A model generated the notes under the pieces. It was given only the letters and a program-made list of their open reading frames with translations, was not told the origin of the DNA and searched no databases. This document shows, one piece after another, positions 11,073 to 62,398 of a stretch of 64,000 nt of DNA (position 1 is its first letter; each line of letters starts with the position of its first letter). Location: contig CAYZGO010000004.1 of the NCBI GenBank assembly GCA_964478075.1, positions 60,492-124,491 of the forward strand, in the 5' to 3' direction. Made by a program: the position numbers and the translations under genes. The stretch is from an uncultured Anaerolineales bacterium. GTDB lineage: Bacteria; Chloroflexota; Anaerolineae; UBA2200.

Positions 11073-11107
11073 CTGGTAACTGCCAACTGACAACTGCTAA
11101 CTGTCAA
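11073..11107 (+). repeat. heptanucleotide tandem repeat CTGGYAA x5 in the 5' leader of the CBM48 gene
   Basis: CTGGTAA CTGCCAA CTGACAA CTGCTAA CTGTCAA starts right after the M50 stop codon and ends 14 nt before the ATG at 11121. Same unit and orientation relative to the downstream gene as the tract at 19312-19427. Confidence 0.7.
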
Positions 11108-17471: not shown

Positions 17472-17581
17472 TTCTCCCTCCTTTTCTCCCTGGCGCTCCT
17501 AAGGGCCTCATTAATCGCAGCGGACTCTGCGCGCGCTCCCATCCCCCTTGGCTCACATAGGTCTACCATCTACCCGACAGT

Positions 17582-17610
17582 ATTGTAGCGTAAACGCCTG
17601 TATATGTCAA
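17582..17610 (-). promoter_or_regulatory. near-consensus sigma70 promoter (TTGACA - 17 - TACAAT) reading on the minus strand toward the 17471 gene
   Basis: Minus-strand read: cTTGACAtatacaggcgtttacgcTACAATa. 6/6 match at -35, 17-nt spacer, 5/6 at -10. Confidence 0.55.
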
Positions 17611-17877
17611 GAACCTGACCTACTGGATCTACCCAAGCTGCCCATGAGTCATTTGGTTCACAACTGGAGATGGAAACCGTATTCGCACCACCATGTAGCC
17701 TAGCCCTTTACGGTTCGTGCCGCCTGATCGTTCATCCTCGCGTACCATCTTCCCCGTCAGGGTGTCTCCTTTGTCTCTCGACACCTTTGTCACGTCTGAC
17801 AAAGACGTGGAAGACGAGAGGTCGCCCCCCTGCGGGGCCCTTCGGCGGCGTCGCTCGCCTCAGTCTCTGTCGTTCCC

Positions 17878-17925
17878 CGTTTACGCCTTCCGTTTACGCC
17901 TCTGGCGTAAACGGAAGGCGTAAAG
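17878..17925. repeat. 21-bp near-perfect palindrome (CGTTTACGCCTTCCGTTTACGCC tctg GCGTAAACGGAAGGCGTAAAG) inside an 825-bp non-coding gap
   Basis: 20/21 complementary arms with a 4-nt loop. Flanking sequence carries further, less perfect inverted repeats. Confidence 0.6.
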
Positions 17926-18295
17926 ACAAAGGTGAGACAGAGGCGACGAACGGCGCTTGACGGGACGGGATGGACGTTTGGAACGGGGACCCCGTCAGGC
18001 GGGGCGAACGGCAAGCCCCTATACTACAAGTTCGTATTATTCGTGCACTGCTTTCCCCACGTGAGATTGGCCAAAACCCAGATCGACGCACACCAAGCAT
18101 GTGGCTTGCCTCTACTTCGCTACATAGATATCCAGCTAGTTGGGGGCAGGACAACGTCCAGCGTTAGTCCCATAGCGTCCTTCCTTGCCCATCACTTGTG
18201 CGCCCAACCTGAACTACGTCGCGTCCAAAGCCAGATTCTGAGTATTATACACTATTGCTCTGTCAGCCCCCAATTGAGGGTCTGTAGTAGCGACG

Positions 18296-19378
18296 TCAGT
18301 GGCCGAGCAAGTGCGGAAAGGCAACTCGCGTTGCCACTACGAGCCTATCAGTCAGCGCTTCTATCACTGCTTCCGTGGATACCGCCTCCAGACACATCCG
18401 CTGGCGGCAGCCGCGCCGCTGCTCAACGCCGCACGGCGCGCAAGGTGTTGTGCCTCGCAGTATGCGCACCAATGCTCCGCGTGGTGCCCACACGTCCGCG
18501 TCGGTTGGCCCGAATATGGCCACTGTAGGCACGCCCACGGCCGCTGCCAGGTGGCTCACCCCTGAGTCGTTGCCCAGATAAGCCTGGCAGCGTGCCAAAA
18601 TCGCCGCTAGCCGGTGCAGAGACAAGTTGTGCAGCATGATGCATTCCTGCCCGTCCAGCGCTTGCCTCACCTTGCCAACAGCGCTGGCATCTGCCGGGCC
18701 GCTGAGCAGCAAGATGCGCGGCCCACGTTCACGCGCCAGGTACTGCGCTACAGCGGCAAAGCGCTCTGCAGGCCAGTTCTTCGCCGTGCTGCCGCTGCCA
18801 GGATGTATGGCCACGACCAGTTGATCTCCCAGGCTGTGCTCTTTCCACCACTGCGCGGCATCCTGCTGATCCGCCGCTGTGAGTGCCAGACATGATGGTT
18901 CAGCCTTCGTTGCCACACCTAGCTCCCGCAGAGGCTGCTGCAGATACTCACTCATGTGCACGCGCAAATACGGCACTGGCCGCGCGTCGAAGCTCAGCAC
19001 CTTGCCACGAGCCGCACGCGCCAGGTTGCGCGCGAAAGCATGCGCTGGCGGCGTGGCATAGGAGACAACGAGGTCAAACTGATCGAGGTAGCGCTGGAGC
19101 CGCACGCTGGGCACTGCATCCGGTTGGAACAGGGCGCTCAGGTCGGCACGGTCAAAAGATGACACAGCGGTGACCACGGTGCGGCCAGCCAGCAACCGCA
19201 GTACCGCCAGGTCGCCCATCACCTCAATAGCAGCTTCCGGGAACCTGGCCCGCAGTCCCTCCAGGGCCGGCAGGGTGAGCAAAACGTCGCCCAGGGCACC
19301 GGGACGCAGAACCAGTATCCAGTATCCAGTTGCCAGTTGCCGGTTGTCAGTTACCAGTTTCCAGTCACCAGTTGCCGG
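18296..19378 (-). CDS. glycosyltransferase family 9 (heptosyltransferase-like); 5' end runs into a heptanucleotide repeat tract and has no canonical start codon
   Basis: Conserved GT9 N-terminal strand WILVLRPGALGDVLLTLPAL lies upstream of the TTG that the ORF track used as start. The open frame continues to a TAA at 19379-19381 with no ATG/GTG/TTG between that stop and the motif. Confidence 0.65.
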   Translation of the reverse strand, partial: PATGDWKLVTDNRQLATGYWILVLRPGALGDVLLTLPALEGLRARFPEAAIEVMGDLAVLRLLAGRTVVTAVSSFDRADLSALFQPDAVPSVRLQRYLDQFDLVVSYATPPAHAFARNLARAARGKVLSFDARPVPYLRVHMSEYLQQPLRELGVATKAEPSCLALTAADQQDAAQWWKEHSLGDQLVVAIHPGSGSTAKNWPAERFAAVAQYLARERGPRILLLSGPADASAVGKVRQALDGQECIMLHNLSLHRLAAILARCQAYLGNDSGVSHLAAAVGVPTVAIFGPTDADVWAPRGALVRILRGTTPCAPCGVEQRRGCRQRMCLEAVSTEAVIEALTDRLVVATRVAFPHLLGH

Positions 19379-19427
19379 TTACCAGTTCTCAGTTGCCAGC
19401 TACCAGTTGCCAATTGCCGGTTGCCGG
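19312..19427 (-). repeat. heptanucleotide tandem repeat (CYGGYAA on the gene strand, 16 units) overlapping the 5' end of the GT9 gene
   Basis: Sixteen contiguous 7-nt units on the minus strand: CCGGCAA CCGGCAA TTGGCAA CTGGTAG CTGGCAA ... CTGGATA CTGGATA. Begins 30 nt after the hutU stop. Confidence 0.8.
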
Positions 19428-19456: not shown

Positions 19457-21115
<1,659 letters not shown>

Positions 21116-23893: not shown

Positions 23894-24193
23894 TCACCAG
23901 CCTGGTTGTGTCTGCGGGTAGTCTTCATCCCTGCGCAAGTGCATGCCTCCGAGTTCCCAGCGCTCTTCGTCCTCCGAGTCCTCGGGCACAAGGCGCGTCA
24001 CCATGGTGAGGCAGCCCTCACTGGGGTCGTACTCGATCTCCTCAGCACGGCACTGGCCGTCAACGTTGTAGAGGCAGTCCGTCTGCCAACAGGTGATTCC
24101 GGGCGTCGCTGTTCTCCTCCTCCACCCAGGAATCACGTCTTTGTCGTAATGACATACCACCAAAAGCAACGTTGACTGAGCGCTACGCGCCAC
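23894..24193 (-). CDS. hypothetical small Cys-rich protein (possibly DUF1540-like)
   Basis: 99 aa ORF with CWQTDCLYNVDGQCRAEEIEYD. Weak call; the start is unclear. Confidence 0.25.
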   Translation of the reverse strand: MARSAQSTLLLVVCHYDKDVIPGWRRRTATPGITCWQTDCLYNVDGQCRAEEIEYDPSEGCLTMVTRLVPEDSEDEERWELGGMHLRRDEDYPQTQPGW

Positions 24194-24196
24194 TCA

Positions 24197-26017
24197 CTAC
24201 TCACTGCTCACCACTCGCAGTTCCACGTCGTCCAGGTACACCGCCGTGATGCCATCGTGCCCATCGTTTTTCACACCGAAGCGCAGATTGACGCGCTGCC
24301 CTGCGTAGCCCAGCAGGTCGAAGGTGCGCAGGTTCCAGGCTTGATTGTGGTCTGTCCAGTAGGTGCAGTCTGACTCGCCACCGCCGCTAGTAGGGAGCAC
24401 GCAGAAGTAGATGAGATCCCCATCCACCTGCGCGCTCACTGGAAAGTAGTAGAAGGACAGCTCCGCCTGCGTCACCCCGCTGGGGATATCCACCGTCTGC
24501 TGCACAGAGGAGTAGCTCTCCACGTTGTAGCCAGTGTCAATCCCCAGGCGCATAGAGCGCGAGCCGCTGTGCGCACGGCCCACAGAGTAGCCTGCCGGGT
24601 AGGTGGTCCGCAAGATCTCCCACGCCTCCTCCCTCTCAAAGCTGTGATTGAGAATCAACTGTGTGTATTGTGGAGTGGACGTTGCAGTCGCCGTGGGCGT
24701 AGGCGATGGTCCAGTCGTAGGCGTCTCCGAGACTCCAGGCGTGAGGGAAGGGCTGGGTGAGGGCGTCGCACTTCCCGTGAGCGTGGGCGAAGGACTGGGC
24801 GATGGCAGTGCAGTCGCCGTAACCGTAGGGGAAGGGCTGGGCGAGGGCGTTGGACTCGGCGTGACCGTAGGCGAAGGGCTGGGCATGGGCGTCGGATAGC
24901 CTCGCAGCACGATGGGCAGAAAGGCTCTGGAAACCAGCTCTTCGAAAAGGCCATAGGACAATCCGGCCTGGTACACCGCCTCTGCCACCGTCCGCGGGTC
25001 AGGGGCAATACTGTAAGGTGTGTCGTCAAAGGCATACGCTCCCACAATCCAGACAGAGCCTTGAAAAACCAACGTGCGCTCATTCATGGGCAGCGTAGGC
25101 GAGCCAGGGTTCAGGCTGTGGCTGGCCTCGTAAGCATCAAAGCCGTGGAACAACAGTGCGTCCACGTCCCAACCACCAGCAACCAATGCATCGCGCTGCT
25201 GAATCAGCGTTGCGTATGCTTCCGCTGCCTGGCCAAAACGCTGTATCCAGGCCTCAGCGAAATGGCCTGCCGCGGCTGCATATTGCATCGTGTACAGAGG
25301 GTAGTGCACCACCACCTCCGAAGGCCAGCCAAGCGTGCGCGCAGCGTCCTCCAAGACCATCTGCTCAATGTCCTTGTGGGTGGCCGTAGGTGAAGGCACA
25401 TGCGTAGGAGTAGATGTCGGCGTGGCTGTCGCGGACGTAGGCGAAGGAGAAGCTGTAGGCCCACTGACGGTGATGGAATCACCGATCCACGTGGCCACGA
25501 TCGGTTCCGCGCAGTGGTTCGCCAAGACGCCACGGGTGAAGGTGATGCCACTGGTACCCGGTCTGAGCGCACGGAAAGTAATGCGTGCCAGCACGCCGCT
25601 TCCGCTCGCCGGCTCTCCAGGCGGAATGAGGGTCACTGTGTAAGTGATGGCGCCTGTCTCGTTCACAGCCTCATTCCGCGCCGGATAGAGCCACAACAAA
25701 TCCAGGAAGTCGCCTGGCTCAATCTGCACGCCAGTCCTGGCGGGGTGTGCGTCCTCTACCCACAGCACGTTGGGATCAAAAGAGACGGTCAAGTCCAACC
25801 CATAGAGATTCACGACGTCCCGCACCTGTATCTCGACGATGGCAGTCTCGCCCGCTGCCACCACGCTCGAAGCAGGCACGATGAGCACCTGCGTACTTTG
25901 CGTCTCTTGGCCATCCAAGATGCCAAGAGACTGTGTGCCCCGTGCATCCCCGGCGCCGAGCAGCAGCAAGGTAAGCGCCATAGCGACCAATGACACGAAC
26001 ACAGTCAGCCTGCGCAT
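24197..26017 (-). CDS. secreted cohesin-domain protein with Pro/Ser/Thr-rich linkers and a C-terminal beta-rich domain
   Basis: Signal peptide, then a cohesin-like domain ([27 protein letters not shown]...[10 protein letters not shown]), two PT/PS linkers and a C-terminal domain of about 150 aa. Confidence 0.7.
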
Positions 26018-38236: not shown

Positions 38237-38543
38237 GTCGGAATGTCATTCCGACGTACTATGCTGCGTCGGTCAGAGCTCGCTCCGTAAGTCGGAATGT
38301 CATTCCGACGTAGCACGCTCCGTCCGTCGGAGTTCGCCCCGTTGGTCGGAATGTCATTCCGACATAGCACGCTCCGTCCGTCGCAGCTCGCTCCGTTGGT
38401 CAGAATGTCATTCCGACTTAGCACCCTCCGTCCGTCGGAGTTCGCTCCGTTGGTCGGAATGACATTCCGACATAGCACGCTCCGTCCGTCGGAGTTCGCC
38501 CCGTTGGTCGGAATGTCATTCCGACTTACTACGACGTACTATG
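38237..38543. repeat. tandem array of a palindromic repeat with 54 bp periodicity, six copies of the 19-bp core, last unit partial (GTCGGAATGTCATTCCGAC core plus 35-bp near-identical linker); BIME/REP-array-like, adjacent to the second RAYT gene
   Basis: Six near-perfect 19-bp palindromes at 54-bp periodicity. The linkers are about 85% identical to each other, so they are not CRISPR spacers. All three forward frames stay open only because the unit is 18 codons. Confidence 0.8.
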
Positions 38544-59089: not shown

Positions 59090-60664
59090 CTATCGCTTGC
59101 GCCCCAGCAGGATAACGTACCTAAAGTCACACAGCACGTCGTCGCCAGCGAGTGTCATGTTGTAGTACTGCTTGCCTGTCTCGTCCAGGTTCAAGTGCAT
59201 TTGCATGATCCTGTCCTGTTGCTCCTGGGGCAGCCCGCTGTTCTGCAGCCAGTTGCCGATGCTGACCTGTGGCGACGTATGCTTCAGCACCTGCTCGACC
59301 TGAAAACCCCCGCCTGTCATCAGCGCCACGAGGTCCTCTTCAAAAAACGTTAGTCGCTCCTCCTTCAGCGCGAACATGCGCGTGTACCAGTCCCCTAGCG
59401 AGCGGTCGGGCGGCACACCTTCCGAAAGCACCATCACGCCTCCTGGCTTCAGCACCCGGTAGCACTCCCTAATCGCTTGATCGCCACCCTCGATCAGGTG
59501 ATGGAAGATCATGCGCGCCATCACCTTGTCGAACCGCTTGTCGGGAAACCGCAGCTTGCGAACGTCTCCCTCTTCAAAGACCTCGTTCGCCACCCGTGAC
59601 GCCCAGGCAAGCGCCAGCATTTGCGGCGAGGTGTCAACACCCACCACCTCAGCCACGAACGGCGATACGGCATGCGCTACAGTGCCTGCGCCGGTGCCCA
59701 CGTCCAGTACCCGGTCCGTGGGTTGGAAATCCCCTGCTGCCACGAGAGCCTGCAAATATCCTTCCCGCCGGGCCCACTCAAGCTGTTCGTACCTCCTGGC
59801 TCTCACCGCCCAGAACTCCCGCTCCAGACCTCGCTCACCCGAAGTGTCCAACCACCGCCGGGCCCGCGCCAAGTCCTGGGGCGTGTCCAGTTCGGCCCAG
59901 TCCCCCCAGATATCTACCGGCTCCACGCACACGCCCAGGTCAATCAGCTCCTGAATCATGTCAGTCAGATAGGCCACCCGGATGTTCGGTGCCTTGTGGA
60001 ACGGGCGCGCCAGGTACTCGTCGCGGATCTCGTTGTAGCGGTCGCGCATTAGGCGCGCCGCCCCCTGGCTGAACTTGGCCAGGCCGATGAATTCCCCGTA
60101 GGCCTGTTCAGACGGCAGGTGTTTGCCGATCTCCACCACTCGTCCGTTGTCCACCACAACTTTCTCGGCCTGAGACTCTGGATGAAGAGTGCGGCCCATG
60201 TATGCCTTCCGCCAGTCCCGGTCCACCACCAGTGCAATCTCGGCGTCGCTGGCTGTCAGTCGCTGTGCCGCACTGCGCCGGTACACAATGTCAGAGTAGG
60301 ACACCACGACCGCCGTGTCCATCTCCGGCGCGGCGTACATGAGCGACTCCAGAATGTTATTGTCCGCCCACTCCGTATTATTGTAGAACCGCAGATGCGG
60401 GTAGGTCTGTACGACTTTCTCCACGTGGTACCCACCGATGAAGACGACGTCATCAATCCCGGCGTGCGCGAGCGAATCCAGAATCCAATCCAGCACACGC
60501 TGCGCCCCCACCCCATCCATCATACACTTCGGTATGCTTGCCGTCTCTGGCATCAGGCGGATGCCCCGTCCGGCTCCTATTATGATTGCTTTCATACCAC
60601 TATGAGCAGGACGAGACCCACTTGCATCCCGAAACGAGCTCGGGGTATTCCCGCTAGTCATCAT
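59090..60664 (-). CDS. bifunctional protein: N-terminal LicC-type nucleotidyltransferase (NTP_transf_3) fused to C-terminal class I SAM-dependent methyltransferase
   Basis: KAIIIGAGRGIRLMPETASIPKCMM (nucleotidyltransferase G-loop) then VLDVGTGAGTVAHAV...VLKPGGVMVL (methyltransferase motifs I and post-I). Alternative start ATG 60595 (MKAIIIG). Confidence 0.7.
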   Translation of the reverse strand: MMTSGNTPSSFRDASGSRPAHSGMKAIIIGAGRGIRLMPETASIPKCMMDGVGAQRVLDWILDSLAHAGIDDVVFIGGYHVEKVVQTYPHLRFYNNTEWADNNILESLMYAAPEMDTAVVVSYSDIVYRRSAAQRLTASDAEIALVVDRDWRKAYMGRTLHPESQAEKVVVDNGRVVEIGKHLPSEQAYGEFIGLAKFSQGAARLMRDRYNEIRDEYLARPFHKAPNIRVAYLTDMIQELIDLGVCVEPVDIWGDWAELDTPQDLARARRWLDTSGERGLEREFWAVRARRYEQLEWARREGYLQALVAAGDFQPTDRVLDVGTGAGTVAHAVSPFVAEVVGVDTSPQMLALAWASRVANEVFEEGDVRKLRFPDKRFDKVMARMIFHHLIEGGDQAIRECYRVLKPGGVMVLSEGVPPDRSLGDWYTRMFALKEERLTFFEEDLVALMTGGGFQVEQVLKHTSPQVSIGNWLQNSGLPQEQQDRIMQMHLNLDETGKQYYNMTLAGDDVLCDFRYVILLGRKR

Positions 60665-60890: not shown

Positions 60891-61393
60891 CGTGATTCCC
60901 TTCGCCTAGATTGAGGCAAGTCTGATTATGAGCACTACGCATGGTATTCCAGGTACCCAACTGCGTAGCGCCGGAAATATAACACAGGCTCTCTCAAAAG
61001 GCAAAACTCCCTCCCGCTCACACCTGAGCAGGCCATGAAATGTCCCACTTTGCCGCGCGCTCGCTGAGCGCCCTAAACTCTAGGTGTGAGTTCCGCACAA
61101 TTTGAGAACAAGGCGGGCCTGAGAAGGTCCCAAGCCTGCCAAGTAGCGACAGGATGAACGACACCAAGATAAGTTGGGAGGCCATCCACCTGTCTTGCGA
61201 CGGCAAGGCGAATCCTCCACGAATACTCTACAACGCCATTCGTGTATTCGCCGCTCGTGCTCTGCATGCCCTCGCTTTGCATGCCCTACGGGCGACGGGC
61301 GACGGGCGACCGCCATGACGGGGTGTGCTCATTCGTGGAGGGCAATCATGGCTGTAATCGTTGTCCAGAGTCCCAATCCCTCATCCCTGATCT

Positions 61394-62398
61394 TTAGTAG
61401 TAAATCGTCTCCACCATCGGCTCGAATAGGGCCCGATAGCCATCGTCTGTGGACCCTATACACGCTCCACTGAGCGGGCAGCGGCCAGGACAATCGTATC
61501 GAAAAGACAAACGTACGCTGCATTGCGTAAAGTCGCACTGCTCACAGCGGGCTCGGCGCGCATAGTGACAACAACTCCGCCCAATAGTCCAGAAGAGTTC
61601 GTCCAGAGTAAAGACCTCGATACCAGACAACTCTTCTACGCGCTTGTAGGCCCATTTGACCGCTGAGCGGATTTCATCCTCTTCGGCACAAGTCGCAGGC
61701 ACCTTTCCCCTCAGGCGCTGCAGCAGTTGTTCGTCGGACACCTGCACTATACCGCTGCGCAGAGCCACACGCAACAGGTGATAGTCCACTGGGATAAACA
61801 GGTGCTGCTTATCCTTCGCCTCCCACAGGCCAAGCCGCTGCCAGATCTTCAAGAGGACAAAAGCCTTCTTCAGGTGCGGATCGTAGTATCCGGCGAGTTC
61901 CGACAGCACGTCAAGGAGCCCCTTTCCATCGTCTCGCCTCAGATAGCCACCGCTTTCAGTCAGCAACTGCCCCAGTGCCCCACCATACCTTCGCAGCAGG
62001 GCCATTGCTGTCTCCTGTAACAGCTTTGCACGCTCCTCCCCTCGGTTGATCAGCGGGCGGGCAGGATCGCCCTTCGCCGAGAAGATGGCCTTGAAGCGCT
62101 CTGGCGTGATGGTAGCCAGACGCTGTGCAGAAAAGGCCTCCGCATCCCGCTGGACTTGGCGCCGTGCCAGGGCGAAGAACAGGTCCGAGCCATGATAGGA
62201 CTGGCCATCCAGAGTGGCGCTCATGCCCTTGAAATCGAACAGCAAAGTGCAGAGAAAGAAGTAGCACTCGCGCAGCTGCAGCGGCGTGAGATCAGGCAAG
62301 GAGCTTTCAATCGTAGCATACACAGCGGCCTGTAGATTCAGCTCCCTCAGGCGGTTCGCAATGAGCGCACAGCGTGCTTCATCAACTGTCACTGGCAT
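61394..62398 (-). CDS. hypothetical protein, possibly DUF2419/queuosine-salvage (Qng1-like) fold, with a C-terminal Cys-rich extension
   Basis: Helical protein with PVDYHLLRVALRSGIV. C-terminal CCHYARRARCEQCDFTQC...CPGRCPLSGAC cysteine cluster. Family assignment from memory only. Confidence 0.35.
   Translation of the reverse strand: MPVTVDEARCALIANRLRELNLQAAVYATIESSLPDLTPLQLRECYFFLCTLLFDFKGMSATLDGQSYHGSDLFFALARRQVQRDAEAFSAQRLATITPERFKAIFSAKGDPARPLINRGEERAKLLQETAMALLRRYGGALGQLLTESGGYLRRDDGKGLLDVLSELAGYYDPHLKKAFVLLKIWQRLGLWEAKDKQHLFIPVDYHLLRVALRSGIVQVSDEQLLQRLRGKVPATCAEEDEIRSAVKWAYKRVEELSGIEVFTLDELFWTIGRSCCHYARRARCEQCDFTQCSVRLSFRYDCPGRCPLSGACIGSTDDGYRALFEPMVETIYY

Follow-up and report, generated by a model that had tools for sequence, protein, structure and literature searches.

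A degenerate heptanucleotide array in place of the start codon of a Chloroflexota GT9 glycosyltransferase gene: unit number differs between strains and may set translatability

Introduction

Repeat-driven on/off switching of surface-glycan enzymes is textbook knowledge in host-adapted pathogens and barely documented in free-living uncultured lineages. Among the heptanucleotide simple sequence repeats (SSRs) of Haemophilus influenzae are (AACAACC)n, situated within or immediately upstream of a gene for a TonB-dependent receptor, and (AATTTTG)14, which lies in hmw1A (PMC2651432); repeats of the 5′-untranslated-region (5′-UTR) type modulate hmw expression, and those within open reading frames (ORFs) cause frameshifts (PMC2651432, PMC12721329). 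Here we analyse a heptanucleotide array at the 5′ end of a GT9-family glycosyltransferase gene in an uncultured Anaerolineales bacterium. The stretch of DNA analysed (the window) is 64,000 nucleotides long and covers positions 60,492 to 124,491 of contig CAYZGO010000004.1 (GenBank assembly GCA_964478075.1).

The locus resembles the contingency loci of lipooligosaccharide and lipopolysaccharide (LOS/LPS) glycosyltransferases in several respects. Its repeat unit is not divisible by 3 and stands at the 5′ end of a gene for an enzyme of surface-glycan type; the repeat lies between a candidate start (a TTG in unit 3, a GTG in unit 9) and the enzyme body, which begins in unit 16/17; and unit number varies by strain (17 vs 22), moving the ORF in or out of frame. 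It differs from such loci in that its units are degenerate rather than perfect, its starts and stops are embedded in variant units and do not precede a clean tract, its alleles are separated by a multi-unit compound change, and its host is an uncultured environmental Chloroflexota rather than a host-adapted pathogen.

Intergenic direct repeats of TAACTGA in marine Beggiatoaceae, Cyanobacteria and Bacteroidetes, for which a translational role has been proposed (MacGregor 2015, PMC4679880), are a second parallel. They run forward, next to start codons without a Shine–Dalgarno (SD) sequence, carry forward-reading stops and are interspersed with related heptamers, and TAACTGG and CAACTGA are almost never found as direct repeats in the Beggiatoa (BOGUAY) genome (PMC4679880). 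The array described here likewise has a forward 7-nt unit that contains AACTG and ends at or next to the start codon, forward-reading stops, little or no SD and interspersed variant units. However, its consensus is CAACTGG (CTGGCAA in the register used below) and not TAACTGA, only 2 such sets occur in the 64 kb, the phylum is a different one, and the array overruns the start codon.

The (ATCTTTC)n repeats in the 5′-UTRs of hmw1A and hmw2A, with 11–63 copies and commonly 16–18, form an expression rheostat; they are perfect, are followed by an intact start about 100 nt further on, and act on mRNA level and RNase III hairpin processing (PMC2651432; PMC12721329). The present array has a similar number of copies, lies upstream of a coding region (in hmw the repeats are transcribed into the leader) and also varies between strains in copy number. 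In contrast to the hmw repeats, it reaches into the coding sequence, and the fold z-score of the spacer is only –1.8.

Cyanobacterial short tandemly repeated repetitive (STRR) heptamers are a comparable class of heptanucleotide repeat. According to the summary in PMC4679880, Mrazek et al. (2007) found heptanucleotides to be the commonest class of long SSR in prokaryotes, mostly non-coding and sporadic, and ascribed them to polymerase slippage. These are survey-level classes without a gene-level consequence, whereas at the locus described here the effect on frame and start codon is specific. Our literature search found no paper linking heptanucleotide repeats or SSR phase variation specifically to Chloroflexi.

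Results

A GT9 gene without a canonical start

The features at the centre of the analysis are the following.

19310–19427, minus strand: array of 17 imperfect heptanucleotide units with the consensus CTGGCAA (plus strand: CCAGTTG), from Tandem Repeats Finder (TRF), unit parsing and pattern statistics
18296–19318, minus strand: body of the GT9 glycosyltransferase, from a conserved Ile codon, ATA (19318–19316), to the stop codon, without a canonical in-frame start; from PF01075, orthologues and profiles
19280–19282, minus strand: TTG used by ORF callers as the start of the gene
19379–19381, minus strand: in-frame TAA in unit 7 (CTGGTAA); the GT9 frame is open back to this stop, 21 codons before Ile 19318
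19411–19413, minus strand: TTG in unit 3 (TTGGCAA), out of frame with GT9, opening an ORF of 20 codons
19366–19368, minus strand: GTG in unit 9 (CTGGTGA), not in the GT9 frame in the window, whereas its counterpart in a duplicated unit of the sister strain L171 is

The assignment to GT9 is firm (PF01075, E = 2e-30, 106 bits against a gathering cutoff of 22), and both the N-terminal strand and the G-x-L-G-D loop are present. Scores for the LPS heptosyltransferase I, II and III equivalogs (96.6, 94.3 and 86.7 bits) stay below the NCBIfam cutoffs of 170, 135 and 185, and the host phylum is probably LPS-less. The conserved N-terminus, ILVLRPGALGD, lies upstream of the TTG at 19282. Most of about 70 orthologues from metagenome-assembled genomes of Chloroflexota and Anaerolineae start MRILVIRPGALGD, with G7, G10 and D11 invariant among 23 of them, and in alignments to PDB and NCBIfam profiles, which start at residue 1, Ile(19318) falls on position 2–3 of WaaC/HepIII. 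Over the 12 codons upstream of the TTG, the window differs from the orthologous locus L084 by 7 synonymous changes and 1 conservative change. Since TTG 19282 lies 12 codons inside the conserved strand and loop, it is unlikely to be the functional start, judging by these comparisons. In practice, gene callers truncate GT9 at this internal TTG and lose the strand together with the loop and its invariant Asp.

Further upstream, the GT9 frame reads TAA(19381–19379)-PATGDWKLVTDNRQLATGYW-ILVLRPGALGDV-L(TTG 19282), and between that TAA and TTG 19282 it contains no ATG, GTG or TTG. The enzyme itself retains all 57 invariant columns and has 4 singleton changes (orthologue range 0–6), with no excess of unique changes. 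The GT9 orthologues also share a nearly invariant C-terminal four-cysteine motif (CAPC...C....C), which suggests a metal-binding finger.

The place of the start codon is taken by the array. Read on the minus strand from 19427, units 1–9 are CCGGCAA CCGGCAA TTGGCAA CTGGTAG CTGGCAA CTGAGAA CTGGTAA CCGGCAA CTGGTGA, and units 10–17 are CTGGAAA CTGGTAA CTGACAA CCGGCAA CTGGCAA CTGGATA CTGGATA CTGGTT(C). The array thus has 16 full units, and its 17th already belongs to the coding sequence of GT9; Ile-Leu-Val of the enzyme are encoded by the final CTGGATA CTGGTT. TRF reports a period of 7 at 19326–19425 (14.3 copies, 74% matches, score 102) and, in a second row, a period of 35 at 19311–19411 (2.9 copies, 78% matches, score 125). 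The pattern (CTGNNAA)x3 with ≤2 mismatches has 16 matches against 0.11 expected from window pattern statistics, and among the periods 4–13 compared, self-similar stretches in the window were seen for period 7 only. All three sense frames of the array contain stop codons, with TAA, TAG and TGA each arising in variant units; the sense strand has 6 stops, compared with 2.6 ± 1.5 predicted from random decay of a perfect array (p = 0.04). An exact TAACTGA is present in a single copy (CTGGTAACTGACAA).

An original prediction, made from the letters of this stretch, had placed a heptanucleotide tract of 16 units at the GT9 5′ end. TRF and pattern statistics agree that the tract is real, and unit parsing corrects the description: the repeat is imperfect and has 17 units, one of them coding. 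The prediction had also put the N-terminal strand upstream of the callers' TTG, as orthologue N-termini and profile alignments now confirm, and its account of the frames holds both for the GT9 frame that runs back to TAA without a start codon and for the out-of-frame TTG (19413–19411) that reads 20 codons to the TAA at 19353–19351.

Unit number and reading frame

When units were added to or removed from the array in silico, one extra unit restored an ORF with a canonical start only at units 8–10 (3 of 17 positions), and removal of one unit never did so. The unit-3 TTG became the GT9 start after gain of one unit at units 8–10 or loss of two at units 6–11; a few larger deletions also restored a canonical GT9 start. 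Over simple changes of blocks of 1–5 units, 20 of 130 (15%) gave an ORF with a canonical start. The fusion of this TTG to the GT9 frame, predicted to follow gain or loss of one unit, is therefore confined to gain at units 8–10 and is seen neither with loss nor with gain elsewhere.

A second natural allele was found in L171, a contig of JGI 3300009529 reached through the 90% protein cluster of the GT9 (3 members). L171 is about 98–99% identical to the window in nucleotide sequence, with 11 differences in the 1023-nt GT9 gene (6 synonymous and 5 nonsynonymous), and by this measure it is the same species as the window clone. Its array has 22 units, 35 nt or 5 units more than the 17 of the window; the insert, CCGGCAA CTGGTGA CTGGAAA CTGGCAA CTGGAAA, follows unit 11, and 3 substitutions are found in the array. 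The 3′ end of the array and its junction with the gene are identical in the two strains. The insert junctions and single-nucleotide polymorphisms (SNPs) of L171 are absent from the 17-unit allele, and as the junction sequence is absent there, the insertion is not a mis-traversal of the same reads.

In the second CTGGTGA unit of L171, the GTG shares the GT9 reading frame, and no in-frame stop follows it before the gene body. This GTG is the called start of a 359-aa protein (P0122) with a 19-residue repeat-derived N-terminal extension (VTGNWQLETDNRQLATGYW), and the GT9 N-terminus predicted from the 22-unit allele reads MTGNWQLETDNRQ... In the simulation, a single unit added after the GTG unit switches the ORF on, and L171 effectively realises that solution. 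Unit number is thus polymorphic between strains, and the polymorphism changes the reading frame. Comparison of related genomes, which the original prediction had proposed as a test, accordingly yielded a length difference in multiples of 7. A query with the N-terminus for more alleles found only a 70%-identical fragment.

The 17-unit allele recurs in other assemblies. L001, L003 and L172 are 100% identical to the window over 1.8–3.1 kb, and L002 (GCA_034430235.1) differs from it at 2 positions; in these four and in the window, five assemblies from different runs and pipelines, the tract is base-identical with 17 units. They represent one clone in several samples, and the tract is real and stable at the level of consensus contigs, the level at which tract length was compared; at this level the 17-unit allele is found in assemblies from at least four samples. 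The contigs of L003 and L172 both end exactly at 19994, inside hutU, and that of L002 ends at 19860, which hints at strain heterogeneity or a graph branch.

The hutU–GT9 spacer in related genomes

The array lies in the spacer between the stop of hutU (19457) and GT9.

19457–21115, minus strand: hutU (urocanase), upstream co-directional gene with its stop 29 nt before the array; from Pfam and synteny

The gene order HisRS–RNase III–hutU–GT9 is common to the window, L165 and L170; a scan of genome contigs gave few close orthologues. Two arrays recur in this spacer, of GCGTGAA type after the hutU stop and of CTGGCAA type before the GT9 start, in lineages that are only 60–75% protein-identical. 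In L084/L089 there are eight NNCGTGN units followed by CCTGGTAACTGAGG-ATG, TAACTGA being the last unit before the ATG of L084; L088 has GCGTGNN units; and in L169 an array of GCGTGAA type is followed by CTGGCAA CTGGACC CTGTTG-ATG CGA ATA CTG G. The ATG downstream of the spacer array is intact in L084, L088 and L169. The ancestral layout was probably (CTGGCAA)2–3 directly before ATG CGA ATA CTG G, as the sequence of L169 has it.

Loss of the canonical ATG is also seen in L004, L164 and L170, with the called start in or before the array. The L004 spacer contains both array types, its canonical ATG is mutated to AGG, and an in-frame GTG lies upstream of (CTGGCAA)3; in L170, AACTGCC/AACCNNN units contain an ATG, and the canonical codon is mutated to ACG. 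L164, at 93% nucleotide identity to L004, differs from it by one extra unit in each of two arrays (3 vs 4 units), and a 1-nt deletion compensates, keeping the upstream GTG in frame through the array. This is modest evidence that translation in L004/L164 would run through the array, as the called ORF does in these two loci, in L170 and in L171. Further orthologues lack an array and start plainly with ATG or GTG, and every other orthologue examined carries one of these two codons, in the canonical position or in frame further upstream.

The L170 locus is rearranged in its own way. At 1501–1760, hutU is reduced to its C-terminal part and fused into GT9 as one 397-aa ORF (P0016), and the 600 nt upstream of the truncated hutU are filled with repeat elements. 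On the other side of GT9, the syntenic L165 has genes for an epimerase, a PNPOx-like protein and an inosine-uridine nucleoside hydrolase; the window lacks these at 17472–18295, and no convincing ORF is present in the roughly 820 bp that remain. A nested palindrome, CCGTTTACGCC-TT-CCGTTTACGCC-TCT-GGCGTAAACGG-AA-GGCGTAAAGAC, is found at 17874–17926, at a distance of about 400 nt from GT9 on its downstream side. Several related copies are found at about 1000–1340 of L170, between RNase III and the truncated hutU, and contigs of other assemblies end near the palindrome (window 17773–17936). These observations suggest a dispersed repeat element.

Other candidate signals and repeats

A structured RNA or a terminator in the hutU–GT9 spacer was rejected, as an Rfam search of the spacer gave no match, its RNA fold has the low z-score given above, and no terminator-like site was found in it. 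A HutP-like NAG-N4-NAG antiterminator (the plus strand has CAG every 7 nt) was set aside on orientation alone: it would be antisense to both genes, and no plus-strand gene follows. A sigma-54 promoter (GG-N10-GC) was discarded by inspection, the 7-nt register giving the wrong spacing. One promoter-like match was retained as a candidate only.

19321–19350, minus strand: weak sigma-70-like match inside the array, CTGACA-18-GATACT, 9/12, by sequence match

The window has one other CTGNNAA-type set.

11073–11107, plus strand: another sense-oriented array of this family, CTGGTAA CTGCCAA CTGACAA CTGCTAA CTGTCAA, by pattern search

This array separates the stop of an M50 peptidase gene (11072) from a CBM48 gene whose ATG (11121) is preceded by a ribosome-binding site (RBS). 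Between the end of the array and this ATG are 13 nt, which include the RBS. The array contains an exact TAACTGA and is absent from the orthologous spacer of L165. Both window arrays are sense-oriented to the downstream gene, the one that begins at 19427 ending at the gene start without an SD.

In a TRF census of 169 sequences, period 7 was the modal class of the Chloroflexota loci (19 rows in 142 kb, mostly the hutU–GT9 spacer itself). A genome-wide excess of heptamers was rejected: with this spacer excluded, about 6 per 100 kb are left, similar to other phyla (6.8 per 100 kb). The exact pattern AACTGNNAACTGNNAACTG had no matches across all loci because the units are too degenerate.

Several further repeats were noted. 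A GAGTAAT/GAGTAGT heptamer array (7.4 copies, 93% matches) lies at 617–668 of L165, upstream of a 23S-rRNA-intervening-sequence gene (four-helix-bundle, 23S-rRNA-IVP), and a related GAGTAGT-type array lies inverted downstream of it at 1089–1128, so that the gene is bracketed; the ACTCACT unit at 24192–24216 of the window is the same as that of the L165 array. At 61288–61310, a perfect (ACGGGCG)x3.3 is found in non-coding DNA between ORFs 59090–60664 and 61394–62398 (both on the minus strand). A 54-bp unit is repeated 5.4 times (89% matches) at 38237–38525, in a gap of about 800 bp between ORFs, with the palindrome GTCGGAATGTCATTCCGAC in each unit; a CRISPR-like nature was rejected, as there are no spacers. 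Finally, a 42-bp repeat (3.7 copies, 75% matches) at 24740–24894, inside a 606-aa ORF (24197–26017, minus strand), would encode 14-residue protein repeats.

Discussion

We lean, with limited confidence, towards the reading that a hypermutable but degenerate SSR has replaced the start of the GT9 gene, that the number and order of its units set translatability, and that GT9 is off or leaky in the window and on in L171. The host would be an Anaerolineae-like Chloroflexota in which the array grew up to GT9 codon 3 and removed the ancestral ATG-CGN start. The native ATA-CTG-G resembles a unit of the form NNACTGG, and slippage or a microhomology deletion may have set the array in register with the coding sequence. 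The only canonical starts left upstream of the enzyme body would then be those within variant units (GTG in CTGGTGA, TTG in TTGGCAA). Because 7 is not a multiple of 3, it would depend on unit number and order whether such a start shares the GT9 frame with no in-frame stop after it. The 17-unit allele offers no start of this kind and for this reason would not be translated, or would show at most leaky translation from a near-cognate codon; the 22-unit allele, with its in-frame GTG, would yield an enzyme with the 19-residue extension. Frame state may in this way control expression. Alleles would change through replication slippage or unequal recombination between units or blocks of 28–35 nt, and switching would be slow and between strains rather than fast, reversible phase variation. 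As far as can be read from the sequences, repeat length probably decides whether the enzyme is made, and an SSR appears to set the reading frame at a glycosyltransferase start, a known phenomenon in a phylum that is new for it.

Several points weigh against this reading. In addition to its 74% matches, the array has 22 of 119 positions off consensus, and its longest perfect tandem is 19 nt, so that at most 2.7 identical units stand in a row in place of a long run. A much lower rate of slippage than that of classical contingency loci is to be expected from this degeneracy. The window and L171 alleles are separated by a compound change (5 units and 3 substitutions) and not by a single reversible step, and with an ORF arising in only 15% of simple block changes, chance could account for the ON state of L171. 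The L171 contig starts only 38 nt upstream of the tract, and the unit count rests on this one short-read contig. Neither the window ATA nor, as its sequence reads, the L171 GTG has a good SD. The short array at 11073–11107 does not vary among 8 assemblies, some of them from strains at 99.5% identity. Arrays of this sort are an ordinary component of intercistronic spacers in the clade, and in L084 and L169 the ATG after them is intact. Slipped-strand phase variation, as originally predicted, thus finds agreement in a unit number that differs between strains and resets the frame, and disagreement in the degenerate tract and the compound alleles. The comparison does not show rapid reversible switching, and the tract's anatomy does not favour it.

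A doubtful but substantial alternative is that the array is a neutral or regulatory 5′-UTR element, one of many sense-oriented heptamer arrays of the clade and similar in kind to TAACTGA repeats and long heptanucleotide SSRs, and that all alleles share a fixed near-cognate start (ATA 19318 or CTG 19315), the units not gating translation and at most tuning it. ATA and CTG are weak initiation codons, working at ~1% or less of the efficiency of ATG in the bacteria tested. The consistent use of ATG or GTG in every other orthologue examined speaks against a start of this kind, as does the 7-nt gain offset by a 1-nt loss in L004/L164, which would be needless if initiation took place downstream of the array. 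In its favour, arrays of the same family precede a normal RBS and ATG in other spacers (window 11073–11107, L165 617–668), orthologous arrays in L084, L088 and L169 have their intact ATG downstream, decay is absent from the GT9 body, the window and L171 agree in the array's 3′ end and junction, and a GGA lies 6 nt before ATA 19318. Forward heptamer repeats that abut start codons without an SD have, moreover, been described (MacGregor 2015, PMC4679880).

It is unlikely that GT9 is simply a young pseudogene in the window clone, its start destroyed by array expansion or by a deletion at ACTGG microhomology and with no adaptive or reversible switch involved. Such a gene would lack a canonical start and have stops in every frame of the tract, as observed; the degenerate array makes reversion improbable, the downstream locus has lost the epimerase, PNPOx and nucleoside hydrolase genes present in L165, and 5 nonsynonymous to 6 synonymous changes between the window and L171 do not indicate strong purifying selection. 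On the other side, the gene body is intact with every invariant residue kept, although this intactness is unable to separate the readings because the loss of the start could be recent. The mostly synonymous changes relative to L084 in the 12 codons upstream of the TTG, the presence of the 17-unit allele in assemblies from at least four samples, and ON solutions 1–2 unit steps away also argue against a pseudogene.

An artefact of assembly or sequencing, with the repeat collapsed or mis-traversed, is very improbable: short-read metagenome assemblies can mishandle repeats, and contigs of other assemblies break nearby (at about 17.8–18.1 kb and at 19994), but the units are individually distinct, which makes the 118-nt tract uniquely placeable by 150-nt reads, L171 has junctions and SNPs that the 17-unit allele lacks, and the collapse raised in the original prediction is rejected by the identical tract in four other assemblies of the clone, obtained in different runs and pipelines.

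A broader proposal, which we regard as speculative and rather improbable, is that both hutU–GT9 arrays are conserved cis-elements of post-transcriptional control in Anaerolineae-like Chloroflexota. By analogy with the proposed TAACTGA network, they could act as a landing pad for proteins or ribosomes with movable starts and stops, their length tuning or gating the translation of a surface glycosyltransferase in free-living sediment bacteria.

Returning to the reading in which the array governs the GT9 start, public metagenome assemblies alone show two natural alleles in one Chloroflexota species that differ in the in-frame start of this gene. If frame affects expression, the logic of contingency loci would extend to environmental monoderm-type bacteria, perhaps in answer to phage or grazer pressure on surface glycans.

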